Below are positions 19,552-45,836 of a stretch of DNA of 64,000 nt, in pieces. Location of the stretch: contig JAZUEL010000040.1 of assembly GCA_045640125.1 (NCBI GenBank), positions 4,305 to 68,304 of the forward strand, read 5' to 3'. This DNA is from Oscillospiraceae bacterium. GTDB taxonomy: Bacteria; Bacillota; Clostridia; Oscillospirales; Oscillospiraceae. A program made the translations under genes and the position numbers. The number at the start of each line of letters is the position of its first letter. Within the stretch, counting starts at the first letter, position 1. The notes beneath the pieces were generated by a model that had not been told where the DNA came from, made no database searches, and was given only the letters and a program-made list of their open reading frames with translations.

Positions 19552-19633
19552 ACTGTATTACCTCCGTTTCGGTTTTGGTACATCCTATGACACGACCCCG
19601 CCGTATATTTGTCCTTTTTGTTGGGCGTTGTCA

Positions 19634-21983: not shown

Positions 21984-22061
21984 ATGAGACTACGCAGAGG
22001 ATTGTTTTTCATTTTGGTCATGGTGGCGGCACTCGTTCTGCTGTCGATTTCCGCGTTTGCG
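21984..22061 (+). other. Sec signal peptide of the giant protein
   Basis: MRLRRGLFFILVMVAALVLLSISAFA|EE: basic n-region, hydrophobic core, AFA cleavage motif. Confidence 0.7.
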
Positions 22062-25000
22062 GAGGAATACGAGCAGACTGCGGCGGAGCTGCTGACAGAA
22101 ACAGTGGAGCCGACTGAGCCGGAGCTGCTGACGGCAGCGGAGGCGCAATCGGCAGAAGCGCTGTCGGCATCCGACCCGACCGAAGCGGGCAGCGATGCGG
22201 ATGTTTCGAATCCCCTCGCGCCCAAGGAGGGCTCCGCTCAGATCGTGGAATACGTGGAGGAGGACTCGCCGGACGAAAACCATGTGGACGAGCTGATCGA
22301 TGATATTCAGGACACGGAGCCGCAGGCGACCGATACGACGGTCAACGATGTTCCCTCGGTCACTCATATTGTGAATCGAGATGTTGCGACCGAAGATGTC
22401 GTGGACGAATACTACACCCTCACCGAAACCGGCCAGATCGTGGAGATCAACACGGATGCCTATCCTTTGCCCAAGGATGTGACGAGCACAGAAGAACGTC
22501 CCTTTAACAATATTCAGACGACTCTTGAAGTATATAATTCCGAAAACGCGATCCAGAAAGCCGTGGACCGCGCGCTGCAAAATATATCCGCTGAAAGCCG
22601 TTCTGTTACCATCTCCGTGGCCCCCGGGGAATATGACGGCGGTCTCACTGTCCGAAAGGACACTGCCGCGTCCGGCGTGAACTGGGATAGCTTTACTCTC
22701 TATATCGTTGCGGACGATGCCTATACGCCCGCGGCGGAAGATGGCGCGGTATACGATAAGTCGAGCATCCACGCCGGCGGCGCGGGGAATGCGCACCTGA
22801 ACGGTGATATCAAGATCGACGGCGTGAACGTCTTTTTTGCCGGACTTCTTTTCTCTATGCAGAATCCGATGATCGTGACCGATGCGGACGTGACGATCAA
22901 AGGCACCGCGCAGAGCGACAGCGTCGCGGTCGATGCCTCCGGCTCGAAGAATCTTGTGATCGACACGGGCAGCGGGAACGACAAAATCAATGTCAGCTCC
23001 TCCGGTGGCGGGGGAGGCGACGGCAAAGGCCGCATAGAACTCTACGGCGGAGCCGGTGACGACAGCTTCGGCATCGACATCAGCGCCGCGGACTACAGCG
23101 CGGATGCCACCGTTTCCGGCGGCGCGGGGCGCGATACGCTCGAGCTGACGGGTGCGCTCATGCCCGACGGAGCGGGCAGCACGGTCAGCAAAAACGCCGG
23201 CGCATTGCCCGTTCTGATTCTTCAGAACGCTGCCGCTCATACCATCAACATTCACAGCGACACCGAGCTGTTCACCGATTCTCTGGAAAACAAGAAGACG
23301 GCGGAGCTCGGCGCTGCCGATGTCCGTGACGGTGTGATCACGCTTCCGGCCGAGGGCTCGGTCTTTGTGGACTACGTCATCGACCTTAAAAACGCCGCTT
23401 TTATGGACGGCGATAAAGTCATGGCCGTTTCCTCCGCGAACAGCGACTGCTTCCTTGCCGGACTGATCCTGAACGGCGACGGAAAAGCCTTCACGCTGGG
23501 CAACATCACGGCACCCGGCATGAATGTCCGCATCCTCGGGCGCGAGATTACGCTCGACAATGGTGCAGTTGTCAAGGTCGGCAATCTGACGATCCTGGCG
23601 AGTGATAACGACGGCCTGATCGAATACGAGGAGCTGGGTGATTTCAACATCGGCGGCATCGTGGACGGTGCCAGGATTGAATTTTTGGAAGGTTCACAGG
23701 TCGAGGCGGATGGCTCGGTCATCCTGCAGGCCGCCACCGACCAGACGCACGTTCTCATCCCGTTTTCCAAGCGTCTTAACCCCATTGTCGTGAAGATCGG
23801 GAACGCCTCCGTGATCCTGCGCGGTCAGATCATCGCCGCGGGCAATATCGAGGCGACAACGAAGCAGACGGTCACGGTCGATGCGAGCAACGGTCTGCTC
23901 GCCGGAGCTTATGTGCCGGTGTCGGTGAATGTCGCGCTTTCGGACAGCATCGTGGAACTCAAAAACGGCGCACGGCTTGAAGCCGGCGGCTCCGTGGAGC
24001 TGAGTGCATTGAGCGACATCACGGTCACGGCGCATGGCATCACGGGTAAGCTGTCCTTCATTCTCGCGGTCTCGGTCGTGTCCGCCGATACCCATGTGGA
24101 TGTCGCCGGCGACATCCAGGCGGGCGGCTCGGTCATTCTGACCGCTGACAGCAAGATAAACGACGATACTAACGCCGCCAACCGTTCCGACGCAAAGATC
24201 ACCATTGCCGTGGATGAGGACGGCAACCCCATCGGTGATGCCGCGCAGACCATCCCGAGCCAGTACGGCATCTATGTGGCGATCGCGGTCGTGGATGCGG
24301 ATACATACGCCAGGATCGGCGGCAACGCCAATGTGGAAGCAGGGGAGGACGTGCTCATCACCTCTAACTCCACGGTGATCAACAACTCGACGGCACGCAG
24401 CGCCGACGCGAAGATCGCGGGCGCGGAGGCTGCCGGTACCGAGACCATCAACAATGCGGCGGATCTCTTCCTCACCGCGCTTGATCTGGTCTACGGCCGC
24501 TTCGGAATGTCCGAATACGACGAGCGGCTTAAACAGGCGGAGAATCAGGTCATCGCCACGACTGGTTATAAAGTAAACGCCGAATCCAACGCGGGCGGCA
24601 CCGTTTCGACCGTGAGCCGCGCGAAGGAGGGAGACTGCGTCGATATCACCATCATCCCGGAGGAGGGCTATACGCTCGGCTCCATCACTATGAAATATCT
24701 CGCGGGCGACAAATGGATCGACGAAGTCAAAGTAGATCCGCAGGATACCGAAGGCGGCATCTACTACGCATTCCTTATGCCCGCCGCGAATGTGACCCTG
24801 TCCGCCGTGTTCGTCGAGGCAGAGGGTGACGAGGACCCCATCGTGAATCGTGAAAGCGGGGAGTCCTCGGTCAGTGCTTTCGATGCGCTGAATGCCGCCA
24901 ATGAGGAATACTTCCGCACCGTTGAGTACGGAAGTGCCTATACCATCGAGGGCTCGGGCTCCGCCGAGGAGCATGGCTTTATTTCCGCGAACACCAAGAC

Positions 25001-28000
25001 CGCCGACAGCGGTCAGATGATTCGCTTTATCATCGAGCCGGCAGAGGGCTACGTCCTCAAAGAGGGCTCCATCGTTGTCAGCTTCAAGGACACGGACGGC
25101 ATCTGGCACCATGATACCGTCAACCGCAGCTCGACCGGCATATACGCTTATGAGCTGCCGGACGATATCGACCCGGGCGAGACGCTTTCGGTCAAGGCGG
25201 AGTTCCGCAAGGCGGATAAAAAGGCCGAGGCTGCCAAAGCCGACCAGCAGATCGGCGCGCTTGCCATCGGCGTGACCGTCAACGACAACGAGGCGGTCAT
25301 CGATACGACGGGCAAGGTCAAGGCCGGCGGGAATCTGGAACTTCTCGCTTTTGCGGAAACCCAGAGTGCGGTCTATGCGGACGGCACGCCCATCAAATCC
25401 ACGGTGGAGGAAAAGACCGAGGACAGCAGCGTCAGCTCCGCTAAAAAGCCCGATTCCGCGACCCACAATGCCGCGCAGACCGTGGATGCCGTGGAGTATT
25501 TCAATAACAAAAATTATGAATATACCGTGAAGATCGAGGCTACCGCCGCCGGTCTTCTGAGCCATGCTGAAAACAAGACGCTGACCTTTATTGCGACACC
25601 CGATGAGGGCTATGCGGTCAAGGCTATTCAGCTCGTTTTGTGGGACAACAAGGGCAAGTCGCATAGCTTTGATCTCGAACTTCTGAAAGGCACGGAGGAC
25701 ACCTATGTTCTCAGCGCGGATGACCGCGCTACCGTGGACTTCGATGCGATCCAGAACTTCATGCGTGTCACGGCTCTGTTCGAGGGCGTGGAGCATTCGC
25801 TCACCGCCTCAGGCAAGCTGCCGCAGGGCATCAATCTGCCGAAAAATGCCCGTACCGGCGATGTCGTGACCATCGGAACATCCGGCGCGGATAAGGCGAA
25901 GACCTATTCTTTGACGGTGCTTGACAAGGACGGCAAAGCGCTTTCCGTTCCCGTCACCCGTGAGGGGACGAAGCTGATCTTCACCATGCCCGATGCCGAT
26001 ATCCGTCTTGCCCTGACCGAGGGCGTGAAGCAGATCGACGTGGAGGTCGATAAAGCCGCCTCCGGCTATGTGGCAGTTTTTAACAAAGCCGAAAAGGGCG
26101 AACGCGTGGAACTCACCTTTACCGACAAACTGCTCGATTCCGACAAATCCTATACAGTCACGGTGATAGCCGGTGACCGCGAGATCACGCTCGACAGGGA
26201 TCATAGCTTCATCGTTCCCGCCGACCTTGCGGACGGAGAGAAGATCACCGTGTCTGTCGCTTTTGGTGCCTCCAAGTCGATCGGCGTGACGATCCATGAT
26301 TCCGAAAACGGCACGGTCCGTGCCCCCGCGAAGGTGAACGGCGGCGAGAAGGTCGAGCTTCGCGTCACGCCCGCCGCGGGCTATAAGCTTGCCGACGGCA
26401 TCCTTGTCAGCTTCATCGGTAACGATGACAGCGAATCGGGCAGGCGCATCATGGCGGATGCCGCAGGGAAATACTTTGTGGAAATTCCGCTTGATAATGT
26501 AAAATCCATCGAACTTTCCGCCGCGTTTGAGCAGACGCAGGGCAAACAGAATCCCGAAAAGACCTTCGGCTTCGGCGCTGCGATCTCCGTGAATGTGTTC
26601 ACGTCGAAGAACAACGCGGTCATCAAGCGCGGAAGCGTTGAGGCAAACGGTCTCAAAATCACGGCGAACAGCGGCACGGAGGGTGTCCGTATTGCGAGCA
26701 GCACCATTTCGGAAGCCGGATACGCCCAGGGTGATTTCGGCATTGCCGGCGCTGTCGCGGTCGCCGTCAACAAGATCAAAACAAATGCCGCCGTCGAGCC
26801 GGGCGCTGTGCTTACGCTCGGAAACGGTCCGCTCGATGTGACATCCGCGGCCTATGTCATGGACACCGAAAAAGCCGAGGCTTTTGAGCCGTCCGGCGGC
26901 ATGATCAGCGCCAAGTCCTCCACGGGCGTGGGCGCGGGCATCGCGGTCGATGTGACCAATATCAGCACAACGGCTGTTATCAAAGACGGCGTTGTCATCC
27001 AACAGCTCAAGGACAGTCAGCTCAGCGAGAGCACGATCACAGCCAATACTACATTGACCGAAACCATTGCCGCCAAGGCCGGTGCGGAGGGCGGTCGGTC
27101 TGCGACACCTGCGCTCATCGTGGCGGCATCTGGTGTTAAGAGTCTGGCGGAGCTCGGCTCGGGCAGTGCGCTGTCCGTCGCCGGCGATGTGAAGATCTCC
27201 GCTTCCTCGGGTATGTTCCGCAAGCTGCTTTCGAGCGCCGATACCCGTGGCGATTCCTGCTGCGTCGGCGCTGCCATGCTGATCTCCGTGCTGAACGACA
27301 GCGCTCAGTCCCACCTGAAGCGCGGTGTCCAGTGCCGCGATCTGACGGTGAAAGCATCCTCCCGCGCGATGAATATGTCGGGGCTCACAGCGTCCGGCAA
27401 AGGCAATGAACGATCCTCCAAGGATAAGCCTTCCGGCGCGTCCTCCGGCGACAAAAAAGATGCCGATTCAGACGCGGACGCGGACTCGGATGCGGATTCG
27501 CATCTGGCTCGTCTTAGTCTCCTTTCCTCCGGCTTCGGCGAGGGCAATATGAATGCCTCCGTCCTTGCCTCTCTCTCCTCGGGTCGTCAGAAAGCTCAGA
27601 CGACGGAGGGGACGCTCGGCATTGCCGCGGCTTTCGCTCTGAATATCGAACACAACAAAGCCGAAGCGGTGATCGCGGACGGTCTGGTCCTCGTGTGCAC
27701 GGGGGATGTGGTCGTCAATTCCCGCATCCGCACCGACGTATATCTGACCGCCAACGCATCCGTGGTGAACTCCGGCATCGGTGTCGGAGCTGCTGCTGCT
27801 TTGAATATCGTGAGCTACACCAACCGTGCCTATGTCGGTGCCTCCAAGATCTCCGCAAGGAGTCTTGACATCACCGCCGTCACGGGTGATTCCGCATACT
27901 CTGCGGATGTGAAGAAGATCTCCAAGCAGGAGATGGACAACGTCCTGGCGCAGTATGTGCAGACGGCCTTTGAAAGCGTCTTCACCTCCGTTCTCAAAAC

Positions 28001-37000: not shown

Positions 37001-40000
37001 CTATTCCGAGATCGTTTCCGAAGCATACGCGGATTCGGTGGCGCAGCTTTCGCTGTCCGTCCTTTCGGGCGACGGCGGCACCTGCCAGATCTATGTGGGC
37101 GACTCCGGCAAGAAGCGCCAGAGCTCCATGGCGTATCTGGCGGACAAAGCGGTCGTCACAGCCAAGGGGGATATTTCCGTCAAGGCCGCCAATACCGTCA
37201 CCGTCAAGTCCACCATGCGCAGCGGCTGGGATGTCTCCTTTGTGGGCGTGCAGGCGAATACCGTCCCCACCTCGGTCTATATGAAGACCTCAGCAGGCGT
37301 GGGCGATGAATGCAAGCTCATTTCCACGGCGGGAAAAATCAACATTGAAACCGCTGAAAAAGCCACGGCTACCGCCATTGTGGACGGGGACTGCGTCGGC
37401 ATCATCGTCAGCGCGGACTGCAAATACGGTCACAACACGGTCGACCAACTGAACAGCATTTTCATCGGCAAAAAGGCGGTCGTCTCCGGCTGCAAGGGCG
37501 TGTTCATCGCGACGGGCTCGGATGCCGTCATGACCGCGAAAACCAGCGCAGACTTCGGCGGCCTGTTCGCCGGCGGAACGCTGCAGGCCAGAAATACCCT
37601 CAACCGCAAGGTCAGCATTGATATCAGCGACGGAGCCACAATCAGCTCCGAGCTCGGCACGATCAGCATTCAGGCCTTTGCCGGAGACAACGACGATATC
37701 TACGCCAGAGCCAGCGGCAAGTCGGCGGGATTTTTGAGCATCGACAACGATATGGAGGTCACCAACACCTACAATTCCGGTACGGAAATCAATATCGGCG
37801 GCGGCGTGACCATCACCGCGAGCGCGGAGGATGTCTTCATCTATGCGTGGACATCCGCGGGTAAGGTGCGTGGGGAGGTCAGCGTTCCCTCGGGCGGCGT
37901 AGTCGCCATCGCCGAGGGTACCGGTGATTTCCGCACGGGCACCAACGACAACTATTCTCTCTACGCCCGTGTGAACATTGCCAAAGACAAAGACACGACC
38001 AATATCTCGGGACGCGATATCACCATCGCCGCCCGTCTGCATAAGCTTTATCTGTATCAGGATATCGAGGTCTACGCCAAGGGTCTCGGCGGTGATGCCG
38101 AGAGCTACGCGCGTGCGTATTTCGGCATCGATCTTGATACCTACATCGGCAACGTCACCCTCCGTGCATTCCGCAATGTGTATATATATTCCAGCGGCAC
38201 GCCGGATGTCTCCGGAGAGAATATCCATCTCCGCGCCTATGCCGAGGTCGCGGGTCTCGGCGGCGATGTGGACAGTTATGCCCAGTTCAAGTCGAACGGG
38301 AGCGGTGCCCATATCAACGCCACGGTCTCCGGCAAGGCTGTGATCTACGCCGGTACGGCACGGATTGAGGCCTTTACGCTTTCGCTGACCAAGTATCTGA
38401 GCGCCTACACCAAGCTGAAAGCCATCGGCGATGCCGATGACCATTACACGGACGATTTTAACAATGTCAAGGCGACCACCTACATCGAGGACGGCGCAGC
38501 CTTCCGTCTTGGGGACAGTGCCGGCGGCAGACGGCTGGTCTTCACCGAAGAAAACGGCAATGTCGTGATGGAGGCGAGCGGTAAGGGTGCCGTCAAATAT
38601 ACGGTAGATAAGACCGCTAAAACCATCACCATTCCCGAAGTGACGAACAGCTCGCAGGGCTCGCTGTATATCAGCAAGAACCAGAATCCCAACGGTTTGA
38701 AAAACTGCAAGGTCGGCGGCGTTGCGAATGTCAGCTATCTCGACATCGTGAACAAAACGTCTTACGATCTGATCTTCAGTGAGATCGCGCTCGGCTCCCG
38801 TTTGATCGGCAAGACCGCTGTCGTGTTCACGGACTGCGTGAGCACGGAATATACGATCGTCGACGAATCCGAGCCGGGAAAGGGCTGCCAGATCATCATC
38901 AGCTCCGAGCAGCCGACGGATGTTATCTTCAACGGTCTCGTCAACAACGAACAGGGCGAGATCACGATCCGCTGGACAGGGGAGAAGGGCGGCAATCTCT
39001 ACAGCAAGACCGGCGGCATCTTCCTCGGAAGCTCCGGCATCAATGCCGCTCCCGTGTGGGCCCATCGCTTCACAGTGTCCGGTGCTGCCAATATCGGCAC
39101 CGAGCAGAATCCCTTCTGGCTCTATCTCAACGAAAAAGCGGATAAGGAAGCTCCGGTCCTCAATATTGCCGCCGACGGAGACATCTTCCTCCGCAGCTCG
39201 CTTGCCAAGATTGTGAGCTACCTTGGCTCGGTCCCCACGCCCGACGGCAAGGAGGTGCTGGGCGACCTGAGCATCGACAATGCCACCGCCGGAAAGACTC
39301 TGGATATCCGGCTGGATAATGCTGTATGCATCAATTATCTTGCGACGATCAAGACCTTCTCGATCATCATGCCCGGGACGATCAGTCTCACCAACGAGCT
39401 GTTCTTTGATGATGCCAAGACGACCACGACCGATCTGGACGGACTCTTCTATTACCGCACGAGCGACCTATCCAACGAGAGCTACGACGCTTATCAGCTT
39501 CCGAACGGGATGCAGCTCTATGTGTCCAAGACGGACGGCAAGGTCAAGCGCATCATCTCCACGCAGGGCAGGATCTTTGATATTGACCAGTATCGCATCG
39601 AGGGCGATGTCATCTACTTCGCGGCGCTCGGATACTACTTCAATTTCAAAGAAGGCACGCTCTATTTTGATGACCACACCTATTACGGTCTTTTGAGCAT
39701 CGAGGTCGAGCAGACCGCCGACGGACAGTACAAGGCTGTCAATATGGACGGAACGATCACGAGCGAACAGGTGTTCGAGGCTTTCGACAGCAAGTTCGAA
39801 CGCATTGATACGGATAAGATCGAGAGCTTCGAGTTCCTCAATATGCCTCACACTACATTCAAGCTCATCTGCGAGACCGTGGAGGGCGGCAAGACGGTGC
39901 AATACTGCCTCGGAACCGATTCCGAGAATAACAGCTCGCATATCTATCGCCTCGTTCTCGGCAATGAGCCGGAAGTCAGCTTCCTGCTGCCGCAGATTCT

Positions 40001-43000
40001 GACGATCAATTATACGGACATCAATCCCACGTCCGACAACTCGGATCGCAAGATCAAGCTCTATGCCTATACGAACGACCCGAATAATCCGTTGTTCTAC
40101 GTCGTGGAAAGCACGGCCTACTACTACACCGATTCCCGCACGCCGGATTATCGCTTCCGCGTGACCGGCTCCCTGGAAGCCGCGGTCGACGGCGATTATA
40201 CCTCGGTGCAGAAGTATGTTGTGGACGATTCCATCGGCGTTGATATGCCCACGATCTATACCGGCCTTGACCGCTATTCGACTCTCGTCTTCGACAATAT
40301 CCCGCTGAAGCTCGGAGAAGCCTCCGAGACCAACAAGGTGATCATCTCCTTTATAAATCCCGTCAGGGAAAGCGACGGACGAGCTTATTATGAGATCGTC
40401 GACGGCATTCGCGTCTCCACGGATGGATATATCGTAGACAGCTCTTACGACAATATCTTCTCCTCCTACAACGACGTGGAGGCGTATGAGGTGCGCTATG
40501 ATGCCGCAAAAGGCAATGTCACAGTCACGGAAAAGGCCTCGGCGCACAGCTTCGGTGTCGATTATATCTACAACAACGGTGATGCAAAGGTCACCGTGAA
40601 AGGGATGCAAAGACTCCGTTTCCTGAATGGGTCGGTGGCGGTCGATATGGAAGGCAACTACTACCGTCTGAACGACGACGGAAAGTGGGATGCTGTCAAG
40701 CCTGTCACGGAAGACGGCTTTGAGATCATTCGCAGCAAGGATAACAAGAAGATCCTCATTGCTTTCGGCACCGATCAGTATGGGGATGAGATTACGGCAG
40801 AGGTCTTCTATGATCTCCAGGACAACGAATCCGAAGCCGTCACTGTCAGCCGCGACAGCGATGTCCGCTGGTATGAGAAAAAGAACGGCCAGTGGAGTCT
40901 CGTCCCTCAAAAGGCCGATTTCAAGAGCGCTGATATCACGGCCGGAGGCTATAAGCTCATTCATCTGGAGGGCGGCAATGTAAAGCTCACGCTGAACGAT
41001 GCCAAAAACGGGCTCAAGGGCTCCGAGCTTTCCGATACCAACATCCGCGCCACCGGTGAAAACGGCTGCGCCGGCAATATCGTCATCACCACGATGGCGG
41101 CCAAGTATCTGGGCACGGAGGATGCTCCGCTGGCACTGGATATGGCGGGTGAGCTGAAATTCGGTACGGTCGGCATGGAGGATGCATTCAATGCCCCCAT
41201 CTGGATCACCAGTGACGGCAATCTGAAGATCACCCAGCTTTCGACCGATCAGATCATCCACATCGGCGGGCAGGGCAATATTTGCATCGACAAGCCGAAA
41301 ACGCCGACGGGCGAGCTTGTGGATTTGAATGTTGACTTCTTCAGAGGCAGCGGCGCGATCAGCCTGTATAATGAGGGCGATATCCGTGTGACGATCAGCT
41401 CCGACGAGTACATGACGGCCGACAGGATCGTGTCCTCCAAGGGCACTGTGACCGTCGACGCCGGAGACGGCGGCATGACCGGCATGGCGCATGAGGGCGC
41501 GTTCCTTGCGAATGTCTTCGCCGCAAAGAATGTCATCCTCAAGGGCCATATGCTCGGCACGGAAGATAAACCGCTTTTCATCGACAGCTTTGACGGTAGA
41601 CTCCTCGCCGATATGGATGCGGATTACGTCTATATCGTTGTAGACACGGACCATCTCGGTACACCGGTGAAGGATGGGGAAGAAGACCACAGCGGTTTCC
41701 TCGATATCAAAGTCGGAAAGGTGTTCTCCGTCCGCAGTCTTGCCGACCGCTTCGATGTCCGGCTGAAGACGGACGTGACAAAACAGAATAAGATTATCGT
41801 GGGAAATGACGGCATCATAACCGGTGAATTCTATGTCTACGATATCTTTGAATCCGGCATTTCTCGCTATGAGCAGCCTGAGCTGACGATCCGCGCAAAA
41901 TCCGCCGGAACGGAAGATGATCCGTTTATTATCCACATGGGCAACATCGAGGGAATCACCAACGAATCCATGCTGGTATTGGGGCTCGACTGCGAGACCG
42001 CTTTCCTCCGCGATGTCACAAATTACACCGCTATGGATGCAGACCGTGTGTGGAATACCCGCATCGAGACAGATGCACTGGACAGTCTTGTCCTATGGTA
42101 CGACTATCCGGTATCCGAGTGCTCCCGCACACTCGCGGTCAATACGGCATCCGAAAAGTCTACCGACCATATCACGCACATCCGCTCCAACGACAGTGAG
42201 CCGTTCTTCGTAAACTATGTTAACGCCAAGCCTTACAGCTATACCTATATCGGCGATGAAGACACGGTCACGGTGCATGGAACGTCCTCGATGCGCGGTT
42301 TGACGGTCGATGACGCAGCAGTTAAGGATGTCCGCGTCGTCAATGCGGGCGGCACCAGAAACGCGCCTGTGGTGCTGGATATCGGTCGTGCGGTATTCTC
42401 CTATCGTGGCGGCGAGCCGAATGAATCCGCACCGCACTTCAAGTCGGTGGGCGATACGCTGTATATCGACAGCATCAAAACAAAATACGGACTGACGCTC
42501 GAGGCGAGGAACATCCTCGCGGCGGAAGGACGGGAGGGACGCATCTCCACCGGCGGCGCGGAGATCGTCGCCTCGGTGATCGGCTCAAAGGATGCGCCGA
42601 TCAAGCTGACCGGCGATCTGACGGCGAGCTCCATCGACCCGAACAACGGTGATGTCGAGATCCATCTCGTCTGCGAGAGCGGCGAGGATGCTGCCTCCAA
42701 GGCAATCTCGATCAGGAATACGACGGGAAGCTTCTCCGGCGACATCTACAACGATACGACCAATTCGCTGGATCTCTCTGTCCAGTCCAACCATCTGGGC
42801 ACGAAGGATGAAGAATTCTTCCTCGATCAGACCTATGTGCATCCCGCCGTCAACATCTATCATACCGGCGTGGCGGATGTCGTTAACTACAATCTTCACG
42901 TCGGCGGCATGACCTCGATCCATTCGCACGCGAACGGCGAGATCTACGGCAGACTGACGATCGACGAGATCACGGGTATCAATAACCCGGTGTTCACCGC

Positions 43001-45836
43001 CGACGGTCAGCTCGGCAGCCTTACGAATTTCTTTGAAATTCAGGCGAACGGCGGCAAGGGCGTGGACATCACGGCAGATTCCCTGTATATCGACGTGCTT
43101 GGGTCAGACGGCGTTCCGACGCTCGGACAGATCACGGCGACCGAGGGCGACGCGGCGATCAAAGTCTCCGGCGGAAAGCTCGAGCTTTCCAAAGACCTCG
43201 AGAACGCGATCAGTGCCGCCGGGAAGATCCTATTCGTTCTGGACGGAGCGGAGGATAAGGAATTGACCGGCTCGGTTGACGGAGCGGCGGAGCTCTATAT
43301 CATCGGTGATAACACGGATGTGACCGTCGACCTGCGATGCACGGAAGGCAGCGAGCTCACCGTGCATACGCTGGGTCATGTTTACGGCAAGATTTCGGCG
43401 GATGCGCTTAACATCCGTGTTCCGGAGGGCTTCATCGGCTCCGAAGACTCACCGCTCCTGATCCAAAGCGCTCAACTCGGTCGGGATCGGCGCATTGATG
43501 CCGAGGCCAGAGCAATTTATATGGATCTCTCCACCGGTACCATGTACGGCGAAGACGATCGTGACTTCATTATCGGCCCGATCACGGCCACGGACGGCGA
43601 TGTTCTGCTTGAAAGCATCGACGGCGGCTTCACTGCTTACGATGAGAATTCGCTGGTCTCCGGCAACAACGTGACGCTGCGTCCGACAAAATACCTCTAT
43701 AAGATCGGCGATAAGGATCATCCGATCCGCGTGCAGACGGACGAGGACGGCAAACTGATTCTTGGCTGCGGAACGGCTGAACATCTTGGCGGCTTTAACA
43801 ACGCCTTTATCGAGCTGTACGGCGGCTCGGCTGTTGAGGTTGAAGAAAAATGTTCATTCGAGCCGAAGAGCTCTGATCCGACTCGCGGCTACATCCGCTT
43901 TGCGGACGGTCAGAGTCGGGCATCGATCACCGTGGGAGAGAACGGCCTGTTCAATCTGGATGTCGAAGGACCTCGTGTTCTTGATATCAGCGGAGCCGGC
44001 AGCGTTAATACCTCTGTTACGGGGCAGGATTCCTACATCATCAACATCGACACAAACGACAGCCGGACGGTCGATCTGCAAACAGACGGCGCGGTCAACA
44101 TCGTAGCCGAGGGTGATAATCCGCTCCTCGGCAGCCTGAAGACGAACGCGCAGGACGGCAGAGTGGTGATCTATTCGGAGAACGGTCTCGGCAGAAGCGC
44201 CTCGTCGCCGTATGCGATCGACACCTCCCTGCCGGTTGATATCCAGTCCGGCGGTGATGTCAACCTCTCCTCCGAGAAGAACAGTCTTGTGATCGGCAAG
44301 ATCGACGCGGACGGCTATTCCGTGATGATCCGCGGCAGTGAAAGCGTGACCGATGTTCTTCCGGAGAATTCGAACAGTCTGATTAAGGCATCGACTGTCA
44401 TCATCCGCACGGTGCGGAGCATCGGCAGAAGCGAAGCGAATCCTCTGAATGTCTACGCGGACGCGCTTTCCGCGACTGCCAAAGGCAATGTCTGGGTCAA
44501 CAATCTTAAGTCACCCAATGAGCGCAAGGGCGGCAATCAGCTATATCCGCACAGCGGTGACAGACAGAAAGCACCGGCAAACAAGACGAACAGCACCTAC
44601 GGCGACTTGTCGAAACGTCTGAACGGCGTGCCGATCTCCCGCGATTCGCTCGGAACGCTGTTGACCTACGAAGGAAAAACCCCGCTGCTGGACAGCGGAG
44701 AGCTTCCGACGATCGCCGCGCTGGCATCGTATCTGTGGCTATTATGTGATGAAGGAGAAAGGATAGAAGCGGTGAAAAGAGGAAAGATCATCAAGGTTAT
44801 TGCCACCGTTCTTTCGGCGGCGGCGATCGTTCAGTACTCCACGGACGGCATCGTGGCGGCCAGAGTGCATGAGCAGACGGTGTCGTCGGGGGCCGAGACA
44901 GAAGAGTCCGCGGTTCAAAGCGTCGGGCTGCCTAAATCCGGCCCGATGACGCAAAAGAGCGATCTTCAAAAGACACTGGAAGCCCTTTCCGCAGCAGAAG
45001 GCGAGATGGTTGAAATTCCGCGGGATTCGCTCGAGGCGGCTCTGGCGGAGCTTCAAAGAAGCCAGATGAATTATCCGTCGGAATCGGAGGAATACCGCGA
45101 ATGCCTCGATTATATCGGCTACATCCAGCTCCTGCTGGATGAGATCGATGCCTCCAAGGCAAGCTTTGAAGAAGCGATCGCGTTGGATGATACCAACGAA
45201 TTTGCCTATTTGATTCTCGGCGAGATATCGCTTTACGAGTTGGATCCGGTCAACGCGATAAAATATCTCGACCGCTATATCGCGCTCGATCCGGAGGATG
45301 TCTCCCGTCGGGAGACATCCGCAAAGCTGTTCTACAGCCACGGTTATTATGAACTGGCGGTGGAATACGGTGAGGCGGCGGAGCAGGCAGGCGGCGGGAA
45401 AAACTTTGATCTCCAGAGCTGCATGGGTCTTTCATGGATCATGCTTGACGATTTTGAGCAGGCAAAGGTGCATCTTTCCGCGTCGATCGACTACGGTGAA
45501 TCCGACCGACTGAACGCCGATGACCCGACAAAGGCTCAGATTTATGCGATCGGGTCGCTGGCGGAAAGCTACTATTACCGCGGTCTTTGTTATTTGACGG
45601 AAGAAGATTATGAAAACGCCGCGAGAGACTATTCCGAAGCGCTGAACGACGGCTATAAAGACTCGCTGGTCTATTTTGACCGCGGTGTATGCTATGTCGA
45701 GCTCGGACGTATGGACGAGGCGAAAGCCGATTTTGAAATGATCGTGGAACGCGGCGATGACCCTGATTTCGTCGATATCGCAAAAGAGTTGATCGAGGAG
45801 ATCAATATTAAAGGTACAGTGGATATCAGCTATTAG
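21984..45836 (+). CDS. Giant (7,950-aa) secreted/surface repeat protein; multi-region beta-solenoid/adhesin-like architecture with a C-terminal TPR domain
   Basis: One uninterrupted frame of 23,853 nt. The ATG at 21984 has an AAAGGGG RBS 6 nt upstream and begins a classic signal peptide (the TTG at 21870 in the ORF track is less likely). Host-like G+C, AT-rich 380-nt upstream region, strong terminator at 45843-45890. Domain-level evidence is given in the findings. Confidence 0.9.
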   Translation: MRLRRGLFFILVMVAALVLLSISAFAEEYEQTAAELLTETVEPTEPELLTAAEAQSAEALSASDPTEAGSDADVSNPLAPKEGSAQIVEYVEEDSPDENHVDELIDDIQDTEPQATDTTVNDVPSVTHIVNRDVATEDVVDEYYTLTETGQIVEINTDAYPLPKDVTSTEERPFNNIQTTLEVYNSENAIQKAVDRALQNISAESRSVTISVAPGEYDGGLTVRKDTAASGVNWDSFTLYIVADDAYTPAAEDGAVYDKSSIHAGGAGNAHLNGDIKIDGVNVFFAGLLFSMQNPMIVTDADVTIKGTAQSDSVAVDASGSKNLVIDTGSGNDKINVSSSGGGGGDGKGRIELYGGAGDDSFGIDISAADYSADATVSGGAGRDTLELTGALMPDGAGSTVSKNAGALPVLILQNAAAHTINIHSDTELFTDSLENKKTAELGAADVRDGVITLPAEGSVFVDYVIDLKNAAFMDGDKVMAVSSANSDCFLAGLILNGDGKAFTLGNITAPGMNVRILGREITLDNGAVVKVGNLTILASDNDGLIEYEELGDFNIGGIVDGARIEFLEGSQVEADGSVILQAATDQTHVLIPFSKRLNPIVVKIGNASVILRGQIIAAGNIEATTKQTVTVDASNGLLAGAYVPVSVNVALSDSIVELKNGARLEAGGSVELSALSDITVTAHGITGKLSFILAVSVVSADTHVDVAGDIQAGGSVILTADSKINDDTNAANRSDAKITIAVDEDGNPIGDAAQTIPSQYGIYVAIAVVDADTYARIGGNANVEAGEDVLITSNSTVINNSTARSADAKIAGAEAAGTETINNAADLFLTALDLVYGRFGMSEYDERLKQAENQVIATTGYKVNAESNAGGTVSTVSRAKEGDCVDITIIPEEGYTLGSITMKYLAGDKWIDEVKVDPQDTEGGIYYAFLMPAANVTLSAVFVEAEGDEDPIVNRESGESSVSAFDALNAANEEYFRTVEYGSAYTIEGSGSAEEHGFISANTKTADSGQMIRFIIEPAEGYVLKEGSIVVSFKDTDGIWHHDTVNRSSTGIYAYELPDDIDPGETLSVKAEFRKADKKAEAAKADQQIGALAIGVTVNDNEAVIDTTGKVKAGGNLELLAFAETQSAVYADGTPIKSTVEEKTEDSSVSSAKKPDSATHNAAQTVDAVEYFNNKNYEYTVKIEATAAGLLSHAENKTLTFIATPDEGYAVKAIQLVLWDNKGKSHSFDLELLKGTEDTYVLSADDRATVDFDAIQNFMRVTALFEGVEHSLTASGKLPQGINLPKNARTGDVVTIGTSGADKAKTYSLTVLDKDGKALSVPVTREGTKLIFTMPDADIRLALTEGVKQIDVEVDKAASGYVAVFNKAEKGERVELTFTDKLLDSDKSYTVTVIAGDREITLDRDHSFIVPADLADGEKITVSVAFGASKSIGVTIHDSENGTVRAPAKVNGGEKVELRVTPAAGYKLADGILVSFIGNDDSESGRRIMADAAGKYFVEIPLDNVKSIELSAAFEQTQGKQNPEKTFGFGAAISVNVFTSKNNAVIKRGSVEANGLKITANSGTEGVRIASSTISEAGYAQGDFGIAGAVAVAVNKIKTNAAVEPGAVLTLGNGPLDVTSAAYVMDTEKAEAFEPSGGMISAKSSTGVGAGIAVDVTNISTTAVIKDGVVIQQLKDSQLSESTITANTTLTETIAAKAGAEGGRSATPALIVAASGVKSLAELGSGSALSVAGDVKISASSGMFRKLLSSADTRGDSCCVGAAMLISVLNDSAQSHLKRGVQCRDLTVKASSRAMNMSGLTASGKGNERSSKDKPSGASSGDKKDADSDADADSDADSHLARLSLLSSGFGEGNMNASVLASLSSGRQKAQTTEGTLGIAAAFALNIEHNKAEAVIADGLVLVCTGDVVVNSRIRTDVYLTANASVVNSGIGVGAAAALNIVSYTNRAYVGASKISARSLDITAVTGDSAYSADVKKISKQEMDNVLAQYVQTAFESVFTSVLKTAGVSQSVIDSLNDILAPIIGHMSEAFLDTLLKGTGLEGLLAADISAKIDQCLADAGETLEESAKKYLSDFIINAVLGYISRSFKNPDGTPVVVTYKPDTSEYLTEGLRYVGVGIANDLLNHIVDANKFANFIKNCNADEIKTRLWEAFEKAGVVVTTKLTDALLGALGVEAEVEDPANRSVIQTQAISGAGAANVGVAGVIAIAIVNGHSEAVLADAAKSALADTSVKLDELLRLFASDNIRLITAASAAADAYGNADANPSARAEADDQSNADAKAEEPEAKAALFSNTSESSVGVGASFALSVLNNEVRARIGKDRKITAGAIGVDAQEKHKVTTTSASGTDPFKNKPIEGADLSDYGLDAAVTVQVVNITVDAVADTGCVIETTGGNDFVISEFTDAEGHTEVVESANLYIHASETGYTEAIASSMADGNDASVGATVAVNVVNTDVTAAFSGTATLPSNVDAQIVSEGSNEDMSYAKATAMGADLSRYFQKFGTATGKAGSIITDIEQGNYDSFRKEAAEQEQKNAKNKTSYRVIGYLTGHKSAEGSDASAGLPLSENVLGLLDAKSDQASEDALAEGLEEAFEAAEAANSASNTSPTKYEVAASVGVNVTDHNIKTKIIGSITAGDILAAAMNDSDFRNRASSAAASLSRSSNAVSAGVAVTVTNNDALVEIDGKLDAKKAPDAKASENARDSIRILSSLSQNTDKAYIGSLASQAISGSVSSGGKATVAAALAIVTSNAKSAIRVADGSHITAIGSVGIEALDRSKLAARAGSISASKGSSVGMGASFALVYNNNAVETVLGTKNAKGELISSGIVLSGSEVTVAAIRKAVSDKDFRVDLGLDYLVTKSAQEESNRGIVDFSQDTITRKYTVTVNINTDKLIDLVDLLNFLTCNNSYAEAIGGNISAAGGDSKAALAGSVAMIFNRSAARVLMGQGITITSDGLVDIKAEDRSTARIMAGAANVAPSSVGVGFTLTALDNQGIVETILGDGAVITAGAYSQKALNETDFLVLAIAASVDTSASAAFSGGAVIDVVNMQNKVRSTVGNNVTLKALNGDIAIDAYNDNYLVLIAAATPGINGKIAAGGTINVVVSNMGTKAATGDNTSLTASGNISVTAYTSDRLADVLAAVSPAFKADKSVAGTLGVTVVRGDTDARIGKNNTLTADKDILVSAQSEAWLMTLDTAVAVGSRDAVGASVLVHVLKRTADAVVDTGSTLTATHGSVSITAPAVDWELFVTLTAGAAGTNGMEGSVPVTVNNSRIHASLLDRSTVTAGDSVGVTAGLDSNIYMAAGGFTLVWGGGNAVGGTVATSVLNNTVSAYIGNDVTVKALCVPTGDGGVKLPNKKDKRSGIVLYAGGSDDVVIVGVAGGGGVSKTGASAVVNTLVISNTFTAKSKASASLTAEASENGDESSNDGEGHPRGSVYAEACEDSDIVDISDGISLGGKSFGGVVSTLVVNKSLEAILAGSVKADGDIVVHAQAEDDITFMSMSLAGGSNGVAGDINTVVVNSDVIAALDADVTKAADISVTAVSDEDLITIGIGAGAGSKSGGSAVVIIPVFNGTTKAYIDDDHSLKNISGSVLVSADSSEDITADVFGAFGSSSLAAAGAVEVAVAKQTTEAYIGNRVTLNADGDVSVIAKNEAELFAIVAQAAGSGSTAVGAAVTVLVDLTTTTAQIGSSGDHDCGTSVTAGNVNVHAASERDVDAVTGTLGAAGTTGVGASVAVIVAGSKMSQNAHDMIYSGSVRPEDCLDKSLRSSKYLQDLGIENDLALLLEGDNQYPERAVYSDFGKDVKYPESAADGKDNIEDYKRAENLPSDDDLDADITISSASFGKEYKNTVSASIAAGAVVHAVDKSKGNISVVASDLMSADIVTGALGAGGKAGVGVGLSVVVTASEVNAVVRDGAELSAEGDIEIRALSGVSDKDISEGRKIADDRLDKNATIDEIKKTDGSITISDEENKLRLIGFAGAGGYVGVGVNGGLLFAYNQVNALLSGDVTKANNIHIESQLDYGEVLTVSAGLAAGVVGADVSISVIYFSGKTESAIAGDAKIQNVTGVISIVSTGDNRIQSASGNLAAGGVAANASLALGINKNKIYTFIGEGVSFENCKDITLSTNYCTDTRVYNINAAFGAIPAGVAVDIAINEIKAYTFIGSASYAPEEAFSKTAGDIHVSGTVSVLSDICGDVYVLGVPAAAGAVGGNAIVALGFNDMTGHADIANKSITAKDLVIRAVLCGDVDVTVVGVSVEAIGGGIDIAVGKNRSENQAMLDLSKNHMDITGSFKVYAGESSDKPSSSDVTVKLYAANGALIDGAFNFAVALNKAVNNALVKGTNTSASLHTSSDGEVRAFGEAYAYSYVIAGGLGLVGVQPTLAYAKLNSTQNASIDTLAALTIGGHLYVTSEQNKQVSGGKWEITAYHPDKDAVTKSGTKQSTAEAVLYNANLTAANVTTGIAIALADATGNACVSAGSLDVTGDILVAGLGNSSAKAFTESLSVDIVSVGVTVAHAYADGDFDATITSAGMISSGGDIRVENRYNATSVSELAPALGGVDIEGASVKVNVAYAGVETDANAGLKSTTGGVISAAEDIHVLNAGSAYADARVKSVKFKLSLANVTTNTAVAKLDPTAAAFIDGAVVNAENVNVSSFFNVKDEEYKTDPTAAEHTGAYAETALPLANINVAQVKVNVAYAKSDADVSSYVKTNAADIAGDLDVITCAASYAKATVGKSAGDVSAISIPVIVVDSNADGSYKAYIEANGSGKETIKAGDTRVLASHNTDSEAYIVPAGGKGEAVDITGATVEVNRGTAYTEADISAYLAGKGNISLNSLNVKADGSAKANVSNLDDMGVSLSLVKVKGTEVVADLNLTQSAYFAFDGTADIAHDLNVISTLNGTAKTIAGNTKGVDFSLVEGSGYGAYTNSEADNSAYLKGKGTVTVHGNAAVKALGGTYSSSEVKKSVSAAIAKIQAVLAKTTVTDSFEAYVSGLTLNTDGSFTLYSEIVSEAYADSVAQLSLSVLSGDGGTCQIYVGDSGKKRQSSMAYLADKAVVTAKGDISVKAANTVTVKSTMRSGWDVSFVGVQANTVPTSVYMKTSAGVGDECKLISTAGKINIETAEKATATAIVDGDCVGIIVSADCKYGHNTVDQLNSIFIGKKAVVSGCKGVFIATGSDAVMTAKTSADFGGLFAGGTLQARNTLNRKVSIDISDGATISSELGTISIQAFAGDNDDIYARASGKSAGFLSIDNDMEVTNTYNSGTEINIGGGVTITASAEDVFIYAWTSAGKVRGEVSVPSGGVVAIAEGTGDFRTGTNDNYSLYARVNIAKDKDTTNISGRDITIAARLHKLYLYQDIEVYAKGLGGDAESYARAYFGIDLDTYIGNVTLRAFRNVYIYSSGTPDVSGENIHLRAYAEVAGLGGDVDSYAQFKSNGSGAHINATVSGKAVIYAGTARIEAFTLSLTKYLSAYTKLKAIGDADDHYTDDFNNVKATTYIEDGAAFRLGDSAGGRRLVFTEENGNVVMEASGKGAVKYTVDKTAKTITIPEVTNSSQGSLYISKNQNPNGLKNCKVGGVANVSYLDIVNKTSYDLIFSEIALGSRLIGKTAVVFTDCVSTEYTIVDESEPGKGCQIIISSEQPTDVIFNGLVNNEQGEITIRWTGEKGGNLYSKTGGIFLGSSGINAAPVWAHRFTVSGAANIGTEQNPFWLYLNEKADKEAPVLNIAADGDIFLRSSLAKIVSYLGSVPTPDGKEVLGDLSIDNATAGKTLDIRLDNAVCINYLATIKTFSIIMPGTISLTNELFFDDAKTTTTDLDGLFYYRTSDLSNESYDAYQLPNGMQLYVSKTDGKVKRIISTQGRIFDIDQYRIEGDVIYFAALGYYFNFKEGTLYFDDHTYYGLLSIEVEQTADGQYKAVNMDGTITSEQVFEAFDSKFERIDTDKIESFEFLNMPHTTFKLICETVEGGKTVQYCLGTDSENNSSHIYRLVLGNEPEVSFLLPQILTINYTDINPTSDNSDRKIKLYAYTNDPNNPLFYVVESTAYYYTDSRTPDYRFRVTGSLEAAVDGDYTSVQKYVVDDSIGVDMPTIYTGLDRYSTLVFDNIPLKLGEASETNKVIISFINPVRESDGRAYYEIVDGIRVSTDGYIVDSSYDNIFSSYNDVEAYEVRYDAAKGNVTVTEKASAHSFGVDYIYNNGDAKVTVKGMQRLRFLNGSVAVDMEGNYYRLNDDGKWDAVKPVTEDGFEIIRSKDNKKILIAFGTDQYGDEITAEVFYDLQDNESEAVTVSRDSDVRWYEKKNGQWSLVPQKADFKSADITAGGYKLIHLEGGNVKLTLNDAKNGLKGSELSDTNIRATGENGCAGNIVITTMAAKYLGTEDAPLALDMAGELKFGTVGMEDAFNAPIWITSDGNLKITQLSTDQIIHIGGQGNICIDKPKTPTGELVDLNVDFFRGSGAISLYNEGDIRVTISSDEYMTADRIVSSKGTVTVDAGDGGMTGMAHEGAFLANVFAAKNVILKGHMLGTEDKPLFIDSFDGRLLADMDADYVYIVVDTDHLGTPVKDGEEDHSGFLDIKVGKVFSVRSLADRFDVRLKTDVTKQNKIIVGNDGIITGEFYVYDIFESGISRYEQPELTIRAKSAGTEDDPFIIHMGNIEGITNESMLVLGLDCETAFLRDVTNYTAMDADRVWNTRIETDALDSLVLWYDYPVSECSRTLAVNTASEKSTDHITHIRSNDSEPFFVNYVNAKPYSYTYIGDEDTVTVHGTSSMRGLTVDDAAVKDVRVVNAGGTRNAPVVLDIGRAVFSYRGGEPNESAPHFKSVGDTLYIDSIKTKYGLTLEARNILAAEGREGRISTGGAEIVASVIGSKDAPIKLTGDLTASSIDPNNGDVEIHLVCESGEDAASKAISIRNTTGSFSGDIYNDTTNSLDLSVQSNHLGTKDEEFFLDQTYVHPAVNIYHTGVADVVNYNLHVGGMTSIHSHANGEIYGRLTIDEITGINNPVFTADGQLGSLTNFFEIQANGGKGVDITADSLYIDVLGSDGVPTLGQITATEGDAAIKVSGGKLELSKDLENAISAAGKILFVLDGAEDKELTGSVDGAAELYIIGDNTDVTVDLRCTEGSELTVHTLGHVYGKISADALNIRVPEGFIGSEDSPLLIQSAQLGRDRRIDAEARAIYMDLSTGTMYGEDDRDFIIGPITATDGDVLLESIDGGFTAYDENSLVSGNNVTLRPTKYLYKIGDKDHPIRVQTDEDGKLILGCGTAEHLGGFNNAFIELYGGSAVEVEEKCSFEPKSSDPTRGYIRFADGQSRASITVGENGLFNLDVEGPRVLDISGAGSVNTSVTGQDSYIINIDTNDSRTVDLQTDGAVNIVAEGDNPLLGSLKTNAQDGRVVIYSENGLGRSASSPYAIDTSLPVDIQSGGDVNLSSEKNSLVIGKIDADGYSVMIRGSESVTDVLPENSNSLIKASTVIIRTVRSIGRSEANPLNVYADALSATAKGNVWVNNLKSPNERKGGNQLYPHSGDRQKAPANKTNSTYGDLSKRLNGVPISRDSLGTLLTYEGKTPLLDSGELPTIAALASYLWLLCDEGERIEAVKRGKIIKVIATVLSAAAIVQYSTDGIVAARVHEQTVSSGAETEESAVQSVGLPKSGPMTQKSDLQKTLEALSAAEGEMVEIPRDSLEAALAELQRSQMNYPSESEEYRECLDYIGYIQLLLDEIDASKASFEEAIALDDTNEFAYLILGEISLYELDPVNAIKYLDRYIALDPEDVSRRETSAKLFYSHGYYELAVEYGEAAEQAGGGKNFDLQSCMGLSWIMLDDFEQAKVHLSASIDYGESDRLNADDPTKAQIYAIGSLAESYYYRGLCYLTEEDYENAARDYSEALNDGYKDSLVYFDRGVCYVELGRMDEAKADFEMIVERGDDPDFVDIAKELIEEINIKGTVDISY
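24566..26533 (+). repeat. Six ~80-95-aa beta-sandwich modules (divergent InlB B-repeat-like) within the giant ORF, arranged 2 + 4 around one solenoid-type unit
   Basis: Recurrent pattern Y.V......G.V...........V.(I/F)...P..GY.(L/V).....V........(V/I).(L/V).A.F. Examples: GDCVDITIIPEEGYTLGSI...NVTLSAVF; MIRFIIEPAEGYVLKEGSI...LSVKAEF; LTFIATPDEGYAVKAI...RVTALF; VELRVTPAAGYKLADG...IELSAAF. Confidence 0.6.
26565..38400 (+). repeat. About 12 kb of degenerate protein-level repeats rich in G/A/V/S/T/N/D (solenoid-type units) within the giant ORF
   Basis: Dozens of units of the form (small)-G-(V/I)-G-A-x-(V/I/F)-A-(V/L)-x-(V/I)-x-N-x-x-x-x-A-x-(I/V)-x-x-x-(A/V)-x-(L/I)-x-A-x-G-(D/S)-(V/I)-x-(V/I)-x-A. 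Examples: STGVGAGIAVDVTNISTTAVIKDG; SSVGVGASFALSVLNNEVRARIGKDRKITAGAIGVDA; DASVGATVAVNVVNTDVTAAF; GSTAVGAAVTVLVDLTTTTAQIG. Boundaries are approximate. The repeats are not conserved at the DNA level. Confidence 0.6.
45090..45833 (+). other. C-terminal TPR-like helical repeat domain of the giant protein
   Basis: Several 34-aa TPR-type units, e.g. YYYRGLCYLTEEDYENAARDYSEALNDGYKDSLVYFDRGVCYVELGRMDEAKADFEMIVERGDD and AYLILGEISLYELDPVNAIKYLDRYIALDPED. Confidence 0.65.

Follow-up and report, generated by a model that had tools for sequence, protein, structure and literature searches.

A giant Sec-exported protein of Clostridia with a putative membrane TPR partner joined to its C-terminus

We analysed a stretch of 64,000 nucleotides from an Oscillospiraceae bacterium (contig JAZUEL010000040.1 of assembly GCA_045640125.1), hereafter the window, in which a single gene (21984..45836, + strand) encodes a protein of 7,950 amino acids (aa). 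Judged from its sequence, the protein is a member of a widespread and uncharacterised family of giant secreted fibre proteins in gut and rumen Clostridia, whose members share a conserved N-terminal head. In many relatives, a small single-pass transmembrane (TM) protein with tetratricopeptide repeats (TPR), here called the partner, is encoded directly upstream of the giant gene. In the window protein, this partner is fused in frame at the C-terminus. We consider it probable that the family consists of giant Sec-exported fibres with a TM-TPR partner, and that both the partner and its anchor have been joined to the giant protein in this genome.

A family of giant proteins with a conserved head

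A search with aa 1-1500 of the window protein retrieved three proteins (P0001-P0003) from Clostridia metagenome-assembled genomes (MAGs) at approximately 30% identity, and at 30-34% identity over the head (aa 120-860). Two peptide patterns taken from the alignment of these proteins were used to scan one genome per species, and the resulting loci were confirmed by tblastn. This yielded 64 confirmed loci of the head family in species-representative genomes, mostly of Clostridia, including Christensenellaceae, Oscillospiraceae, Lachnospiraceae, Eubacterium, and Blautia. Cultured isolates were among them (Blautia sp. Marseille-P3087, Blautia sp. HCP28S3_G10, and Lachnospiraceae bacterium FE2018), and the relatives had been sampled from gut, rumen, or faeces. 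Of the 369 cluster representatives that an exhaustive HMMER search with a profile of the head retrieved at E<=1e-3, 108 reached E<=1e-30; contig-truncated fragments made up the majority. We found no publication describing the head family.

The layout of the window protein matches that of the family, namely a Sec signal, the head, B-repeats, and a region of ~53-aa repeats with a helical insert. Sec-type signal peptides followed by acidic residues were present in 53 of 62 homologues. The fetched DNA reaches no further than residue ~4,900 of the homologues; the giant frame runs beyond it at 62 of the 64 loci, and at 37 of them it is still open after 4,500-5,700 codons. Complete members include P0030 (5,084 aa), P0052 (6,468 aa), and the product of a gene at locus L068 (8,846 aa). 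Homology is collinear from aa ~190 to aa ~5430 of the window protein with P0001, P0030, P0052, and P0081, and beyond aa ~5430 the C-terminal parts of the window protein, P0030, and P0052 are mutually unrelated.

Some members carry labels outside Clostridia, namely L004 and L028 (Coriobacteriia MAGs), L026 (Bacteroidaceae), and L049 (Solobacterium), and two loci labelled in this way are among the best matches to the window protein. These labels could result from mis-binning or from horizontal transfer.

A TM-TPR protein encoded upstream of the giant gene in relatives

When the neighbouring genes of the 64 loci were clustered, the partner was recovered in 34 loci by BLAST clustering and in 37 by its family profile. 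At these 37 of the 64 loci, its gene lies directly upstream of the giant gene on the same strand. At locus L015 of Blautia sp. Marseille-P3087, for example, the partner gene occupies 8277-9452 and the giant gene begins at about 9479. The partner proteins are 345-530 aa long and consist of a K/R-rich N-terminus, one strong TM helix, and TPR repeats. According to the positive-inside rule, the K/R-rich tail ahead of the TM helix suggests that the TPR domain faces outwards. Two tandem copies occur in 10 loci (L025, L032, L040, L042, L044, L046, L053, L055, L057, and L063). In several of these pairs, one copy is TM-anchored and the other has a cleavable-looking signal peptide (e.g., ...SAAFA), which would place its TPR domain on the same side as that of the anchored copies.

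The partner likewise lies upstream at three loci from other collections (L003, L068, and L109). At L068 it precedes the 8,846-aa gene, and at L109 (2990-24026) the order is partner, a gene for an M4 (thermolysin-like) peptidase, the giant P0030, and a YfhO-family gene. P0030 thus combines an upstream partner with a clear C-terminal TM helix of its own (insertion energy -2.1 on the scale described below) and a KKKEEEIAE tail. The association between giant protein and partner is frequent, not universal.

A further set of genes was observed within the upstream 4 kb at L033, L038, L045, L047, L052, L058, L059, L061, and L064, and probably at L003. This cassette encodes an extracytoplasmic function (ECF)-type sigma factor, small membrane proteins that could act as anti-sigma factors, a multipass membrane protein, and a PrsW-family protease, and it suggests an envelope-stress-type regulation of the giant gene. 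Nothing like the cassette was found near the giant gene in the window.

In-frame fusion of the partner to the giant protein

Free-standing partners match aa 7592-7947 of the window protein, with BLASTP E-values down to 2e-25. A hidden Markov model of the partner gave an E-value of 1.6e-41 on this module, its sole match in the 64-kb window. In the multiple alignment, KRGK-IIKVIATVLSAAAIVQY of the window protein falls on the K/R tail and TM helix of the partners, and the TPR part is aligned to the last residues, so that the last ~354 residues of the window protein correspond to the partner end to end, anchor helix included. The closest relative of the module is P0153, a free-standing TM-TPR protein with 31% identity. 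An earlier note on this DNA, made from the letters and their translations without database searches, had described a protein with no recognisable anchor or dedicated partner. That description is not supported, since a TM-anchored protein that relatives encode upstream of the giant gene is homologous, over its full length, to the hydrophobic stretches and TPR domain.

Precisely at the start of the partner homology, the DNA carries a Shine-Dalgarno (SD)-like motif, AAGGAGAAAGGA, with an in-frame GTG at codon 7597 (44752..44774, + strand). Only four such SD-plus-start configurations exist across the 23.85-kb open reading frame (ORF), and we estimate the chance of finding one within 5 codons of the homology boundary to be approximately 0.006. 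We read the site as what remains of the ribosome-binding site and start codon of a formerly independent gene, located 3' of the giant gene. It could still serve as an internal start, in which case initiation at codon 7597 would produce a separate partner protein. The two genes were probably joined through the loss of a stop codon. A TGATGA in frame +2 before the SD-like motif is suggestive of a frameshift, but that frame is closed upstream; since this holds for both of the other frames, a frameshift origin is unlikely. If the ancestral partner gene lay downstream of the giant gene, this would also explain why the clade closest to the window protein has no upstream partner, the 3' ends of its giant genes being outside the fetched DNA.

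A metagenome scan with the TPR module returned generic TPR proteins only. Two ORFs upstream of the giant gene (17116..18930 and 18946..19590, both + strand) were considered as partner genes and rejected as shadow frames of the minus-strand genes for an SDF symporter and a polysaccharide deacetylase.

Putative membrane topology of the C-terminal end

The fused partner module occupies aa 7597-7950 (44772..45833, + strand). Its structure was modelled together with the adjoining hydrophobic region from a shallow alignment. A TPR superhelix at aa ~7680-7943 reached a predicted local distance difference test (pLDDT) score of 83-96, and the hydrophobic region remained at pLDDT <50. Structural matches to the TPR fold were generic TPR proteins only, among which consensus-TPR and OGT structures scored better than PilF (2ho1).

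Two hydrophobic segments lie around the junction. Segment 1 (aa 7574-7588, LPTIAALASYLWLLC; 44703..44747, + strand) is followed by the charged DEGERIEA and was modelled with low confidence as a helix at aa 7575-7590. Segment 2 (aa 7602-7618; 44787..44837, + strand) is preceded by KRGK and falls within a modelled helix at aa 7596-7628. By comparison with the TM helix and KKKEEEIAE tail of P0030, segment 1 may be what is left of a C-terminal tail anchor that belonged to the giant protein itself. Insertion energies (dG) were calculated as a simple sum of Hessa-scale values, without position weighting. They amount to +8.75 and +5.0 for segments 1 and 2, compared with a median of +0.13 for the TM helices of the partners (range -4.0 to +6.6), -2.1 for the anchor of P0030, and -3.9 for the signal peptide of the window protein. 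Membrane anchoring of the window protein is putative, and these values count against a membrane hairpin formed by the two segments.

Two topologies seem about equally likely, and in both of them the TPR domain would be outside, as in the free-standing partners. In one, the two weak helices would form a membrane hairpin, with the chain passing from the fibre outside through helix 1, the charged loop DEGERIEAVKRGK, and helix 2 to the TPR domain outside, so that the fibre is tethered. As the C-terminal tail of the giant protein and the N-terminal tail of the partner would both be cytoplasmic, joining them would preserve both topologies. In the other, the helices would have decayed since the fusion and the TPR domain would be exported as the end of the chain; a separate export signal becomes unnecessary after fusion, which would leave the helices free to decay.

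Domain architecture of the window protein

The regions of the protein are given here from the N- to the C-terminus, all encoded on the + strand. The Sec signal peptide (aa 1-26; 21984..22061) consists of MRLRR, a hydrophobic core, and an AFA/EE junction, reads MRLRRGLFFILVMVAALVLLSISAFA before EE, and is the sole strongly hydrophobic stretch of the protein. A poorly conserved acidic linker follows (aa 27-120; 22062..22343), whose acidity extends to about aa 185 (41 D/E vs 4 K/R over aa 27-185). Within the family-defining head (aa 121-860, ~740 aa; 22344..24563), the motif NAIQKAVD (aa 188-195) is invariant, and GGxGxD occurs three times (aa 341-384). The AlphaFold model of this head, based on 15 aligned sequences, reached a pLDDT of 77.5 and is all-beta; its one helix, a cap, lies at NAIQKAVD, and its second half has strands of 12-17 residues. 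Foldseek gave no match of this model to the PDB at E<=1e-3 (best E 0.011), and its weak and non-significant resemblances were to RTX beta-roll lipases, autotransporter passengers, and the TpsA protein EtpA. No Pfam or NCBIfam model covers the head of the window protein, and PDB sequence searches with both halves of the protein matched the TPR region alone. Based on the model, beta-solenoid-like is a reasonable label for the head.

Next to the head is a block of 4-6 InlB-B-repeat-like (Flg_new_2) modules (aa 862-1490; 24567..26453; PF18998, 50 bits), four of which were found by a self-profile (aa 864, 993, 1353, and 1435) and two further ones by eye. The long degenerate repeat region (aa ~1500-5430; 26482..38273) is made up of LktA_tand_53-type units (NF012206), probably of beta-solenoid type. 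NF012206 matched tile aa 3093-4092 with 122.6 bits over six stretches (cutoff 50) and four tiles besides this one; tile aa 2320-3319 scored 50.4 bits. The autocorrelation of the region shows a period of 51-56 residues, and the repeats are broken by an acidic, Ser/Asp-rich linker and by a helical insert at aa ~1975-2185.

The aromatic-rich, lineage-specific region between the repeats and the junction (aa 5431-7560; 38274..44663) contains 8-10% FWY and nine units of IGxxDxPLxI type. Scanned as 260-aa tiles, aa 5381-7620 matched no Pfam family even at E<=1 beyond a sub-cutoff DUF2807 (E 0.0015). A profile of the nine units gave nothing significant against the family proteins, and a metagenome scan with aa 5400-7600 gave pattern matches without any relative. 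A tblastn search with aa 5250-7600 gave no hits at the fetched loci, whose DNA stops short of the corresponding part of the homologues. Neither curated families nor solved structures were found over the last 2,100 residues before the TPR domain.

Reading frame and flanking signals of the giant gene

The uninterrupted frame on the + strand covers 21870..45836 and encodes 7,988 aa from a TTG codon or 7,950 aa from the ATG at 21984. By our own estimate, ~3.6% of random codons would be stops at the composition of the window, so a chance origin of an open run of 7,950 codons is excluded. The coding sequence (21984..45836, + strand; 7,950 codons plus stop) predicts a mature product of 827.7 kDa with an isoelectric point (pI) of 4.5. 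A ribosome-binding site, AAAAGGGG, precedes the ATG (21970..21986, + strand), with GGGG at 21974-21977, 6 nt before the start codon. Two overlapping sigma-70-like promoter candidates (TTGGCA-17-TAGAAT and TTGACA-16-AAAAAT; 21870..21904, + strand) lie in the AT-rich upstream spacer, and five promoter-like sites were found vs 1.6 expected in shuffles. Downstream is a bidirectional intrinsic terminator (45844..45880, + strand) with a 17-bp stem and 8 GC pairs, common to the giant gene and the convergent gene at 45892..46851 (- strand). Tandem Repeats Finder and a repeat finder detected only short and degenerate DNA repeats in the gene, namely a single weak tandem repeat and direct repeats in five families, none longer than 43 nt, which makes collapse or expansion during assembly unlikely. 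Together, these features indicate a real, intact, monocistronic-looking gene for a Sec-exported megadalton fibre protein. Antisense ORFs of up to 822 aa within the gene are probably shadow frames of the biased coding sequence.

Upstream, the MalQ terminator hairpin (21358-21393) is followed by a gene remnant at ~21400-21610 (- strand), which consists of ~35 codons of a GcvT-like (aminomethyltransferase) N-terminus up to a stop and then the last 27 codons of another frame.

Much of what the earlier note had read from the sequence agrees with these results. The single frame of 7,950 codons with its ribosome-binding site, Sec signal peptide, AT-rich upstream region, and strong terminator was confirmed by the ORF, the promoter-like sites, and the 17-bp stem, as was the monocistronic-looking position of the gene between a convergent gene and a gcvT-like stump. 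Its view that the DNA repeats are too degenerate for assembly artefacts accords with repeat families no longer than 43 nt. The note's architecture also stood as regards the acidic linker, the GGxGxD motifs, the repeats, the aromatic-rich IGxxDxPLxI region, the hydrophobic stretches, and the TPR domain; the label of a pectin-lyase-type helix for the head did not, since Foldseek found no PDB match. Four of its six InlB-B-repeat-like modules were recovered by the self-profile, the remaining two being visible only by eye. The Pfam and NCBIfam search that it had proposed found no characterised family over the head, and matched the NF012206 repeats and TPR. The survey of homologues and neighbourhoods that it had also proposed found the 64 loci and, directly upstream in 37 of them, the TM-TPR partner. 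Its interpretation is thus supported in part: the suggestion of an undescribed class of surface fibre fits the uncharacterised head family and the lack of a classical wall anchor, but the protein has many relatives, and the partner reported as missing is present in fused form.

Genomic context

The neighbours of the giant gene are ordinary chromosomal genes, none of which is related to export. An SDF symporter, a polysaccharide deacetylase, and MalQ are encoded upstream. On the downstream side, a cobalamin riboswitch is found with an energy-coupling-factor (ECF)-type transporter, and a histidine kinase is encoded together with a response regulator. IspH-S1, RecG, Cmk, RNase J, and RecR are encoded elsewhere in the window. 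Gene context and relatives both point to Clostridia. The window yielded no identifiable sporulation gene.

Several of these neighbours have features of their own. The 697-aa ORF at 6425-8518 (+ strand) encodes an IspH (LytB) domain together with four S1 RNA-binding domains. At 47011-50786, a CbiQ-like gene is preceded by the cobalamin riboswitch (RF00174, 95.9 bits) and overlaps a 934-aa ORF with two ABC ATPase domains fused to an ECF S-component-like domain. A large serine recombinase (15278-16744, + strand; Resolvase, Recombinase, and Zn_ribbon_recom domains) is encoded 5 kb upstream of the giant gene and adjoins TetR and GyrI-like genes in a stretch of lower GC content (47-52%). This region may be the remnant of a mobile element.

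Proposed model and alternative explanations

According to the explanation we favour, the chain would be threaded N to C through Sec and would form a long beta-rich fibre, with the conserved head at the distal tip, where it probably binds a ligand. The membrane end would be formed by the variable C-terminal part and the TPR module; there, the TPR domain might dock, hold, tether, or help to assemble the base of the fibre. The sequence data show an intact gene, its membership in the family, the association of the family with a TM-TPR partner, and the fusion, whereas we infer the beta-solenoid shape of the fibre, the head-out orientation, the role of the TPR domain, and the membrane tethering. Given the architecture and the gut, rumen, or faecal sources of the relatives, the protein might, at a guess, form a matrix or adhere to particles, host surfaces, or other cells.

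Several results weigh against this explanation. By dG, segments 1 and 2 are poor candidates for membrane helices, and both were modelled at pLDDT <50. The partner is lacking nearby in approximately 40% of the related loci, including the complete member P0052 and the clade closest to the window protein (L004, L005, L006, L008, L009, L011, L012, L013, L028, and L031). Records of closest relatives without an upstream partner gene are OY771363.1, WRNE01000001.1, DAOTGE010000001.1, OY764017.1, OY762278.1, CAYLIG010000006.1, and JBDKRL010000016.1. No other protein with such a fusion was recovered, the fetched DNA of the closest relatives ending before their C-termini. For the head, structure comparison gave nothing significant, and a profile of its alignment matched no PDB sequence either.

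Some of these points suit a different account, in which the product is a released filamentous exoprotein, that is, an adhesin or cytotoxin similar to LktA or FhaB that is secreted through Sec, shed, and not anchored. The hydrophobic stretches would then be dead remnants, and the TPR domain a mere terminal protein-binding module. The LktA_tand_53 repeats above the cutoff, the weak TM potential of the hydrophobic segments, the lack of a wall-anchoring module in the window protein, and the complete member P0052, which has neither a partner nor a C-terminal TM helix, would all be expected of such a protein. However, the partners that occur as separate proteins carry a membrane anchor, and the C-terminal TM helix of P0030 is strong, which argues for a membrane-proximal C-terminus in the family; moreover, the analyses of the protein and the window revealed no TPS domain, no TpsB gene, and no toxin domain. 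We therefore regard a released exoprotein as unlikely, although it is the alternative that we take most seriously. The collinearity of the N-terminal ~5,400 residues across the family, combined with the unrelated C-terminal parts of the window protein, P0030, and P0052, also recalls polymorphic toxins or contact-dependent competition proteins, in which a conserved N-terminal filament delivers a variable C-terminal effector, here aa 5431-7560. Yet this region consists of 2,100 aa of repetitive IGxxDxPL units without a compact domain, and no toxin, peptidase, or nuclease family was detected in aa 5381-7620 even at E<=1. In addition, the protein terminates in the partner TPR module rather than in an effector, and no small immunity-like gene follows at the 3' side, where the next gene is convergent and lies past the terminator. 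An effector-delivering role thus appears highly implausible.

The fusion itself might be an artefact or a very recent lesion, such that a giant gene of ~7,590 aa was followed by a TM-TPR gene starting from the GTG at codon 7597, and the stop between them was lost by a sequencing error or a fresh point mutation. The SD-like motif and in-frame GTG exactly at the homology boundary would fit this scenario, as would the free-standing state of the closest TPR relative, P0153, and the failure to find a second fused protein. On the other hand, the given sequence has no in-frame stop anywhere in the region, and closure of the other two frames upstream makes a simple frameshift unlikely. The fused anchor helix is also less hydrophobic than those of free-standing partners, which suggests time under altered constraint rather than a one-base error. 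We consider an artefact or fresh lesion improbable.

Beyond the favoured explanation, we tentatively raise the possibility, which we hold to be the less likely outcome, of an unrecognised two-component system in monoderm Clostridia. A Sec-exported megadalton beta-solenoid surface fibre would depend on a single-pass TPR membrane protein as the functional counterpart of TpsB. The TPR protein would be dedicated to holding, folding, or tethering the giant protein at the membrane, and some lineages would have placed the system under a switch of ECF sigma factor and PrsW protease. If this were true, the in-frame fusion would be natural 'Rosetta stone' evidence that the giant protein and the partner form one physical unit.

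Hardly any work has been done on the giant surface proteins of gut and rumen Clostridia, and their genes are usually broken across contigs, so that the full architecture and helper genes go unseen. The locus described here supplies a complete family member of 7,950 aa and, through the conserved head, a portable definition of the family. It also leads to the testable hypothesis of a membrane TPR protein as a dedicated partner, suggested both by the neighbours of the giant gene in dozens of genomes and by a natural fusion. Such a partnership, if true, would explain how megadalton fibres are retained or assembled without an outer membrane, a sortase signal, or an S-layer module. The cultured relatives with the giant-partner gene pair (the two Blautia and Lachnospiraceae bacterium FE2018) make genetics and microscopy possible.

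Comparison with known systems

The window protein falls outside the LPXTG, SLH, CWB, and RTX/type I secretion system (T1SS) families. No LPxT[GAN], NPxTG, or [LI]PxTG motif occurs in the entire protein, and no sortase gene was detected among the window ORFs scanned with Pfam. SLH, CW_binding, LysM, and SH3b gave no Pfam match in 1,000-aa tiles at E<=0.01, nor in the 260-aa tiles of aa 5381-7620 at E<=1. Similarly, the RTX family PF00353 was absent at E<=0.01 and no T1SS genes were found in the window; the protein has only three GGxGxD motifs and an N-terminal Sec signal instead. The motif scan and the Pfam searches of the protein and the 64-kb window thus bear out what the earlier note had said about the lack of LPXTG, SLH, or CWB modules and of TpsB.

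That note had also listed Ebh of Staphylococcus aureus among giant adhesins that normally end in LPXTG, SLH, CWB, or a TM anchor. An LPXTG end would be inaccurate for Ebh, as this 1.1-MDa surface protein is held by a C-terminal transmembrane domain (PMC4856396). Ebh resembles the window protein as a giant Sec-exported monoderm protein without LPXTG, and P0030 ends in a TM helix as Ebh does. Its modules FIVAR, GA, and DUF1542 gave no Pfam matches in the window protein, and the repeats are unrelated; Ebh is built of helical repeats, whereas the window protein is beta-rich. In contrast to the Ebh anchor, the hydrophobic segments of the window protein are weak and are arranged around a charged loop. 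We know of no TM-TPR partner of Ebh.

The PilF/PilW proteins of type IV pili are comparable to the partner in that they are membrane-associated, lie outside the cytoplasm, consist entirely of TPR, and serve a single large envelope structure, although they are outer-membrane lipoproteins of diderms. PilF (2ho1) was among the structural matches of the C-terminal model, and a PilW match in NCBIfam was weak and far below the cutoff; the likeness to the fused module is that of generic TPR.

LktA of Fusobacterium necrophorum and other NF012206 proteins share with the window protein long arrays of degenerate ~53-residue repeats, and are likewise very large, acidic, exported, and filamentous. LktA comes from the lktBAC operon of a diderm and uses two-partner (type Vb) secretion (10.1101/534297). 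The window protein differs from it in having a classical Sec signal, no two-partner secretion (TPS) domain, no TpsB/POTRA gene in the 64 kb, and a Clostridia-type context. The TPS domain (PF05860, Haemagg_act) had no Pfam match in the N-terminal tiles at E<=0.01, and no TpsB (POTRA plus Omp85) was present among the Pfam-annotated plausible ORFs of the window or recurred beside the 64 loci. To our knowledge, the head, the B-repeat block, the C-terminal region, and the TPR partner have no counterpart in LktA.

The autotransporters EspC, Pet, and Hbp and the TpsA protein EtpA gave non-significant Foldseek matches to the head (E 0.04-0.64, TM-score ~0.1). Compared with TpsB, the partner described here is a single-pass TM protein with extracytoplasmic TPR rather than an Omp85 beta-barrel, and there is no outer membrane. 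Nevertheless, the TpsA/TpsB systems (FhaB, HMW1, and EtpA) and the giant-partner pair are alike in their general plan, in which a very long solenoid-type exoprotein is accompanied by one small dedicated membrane protein.

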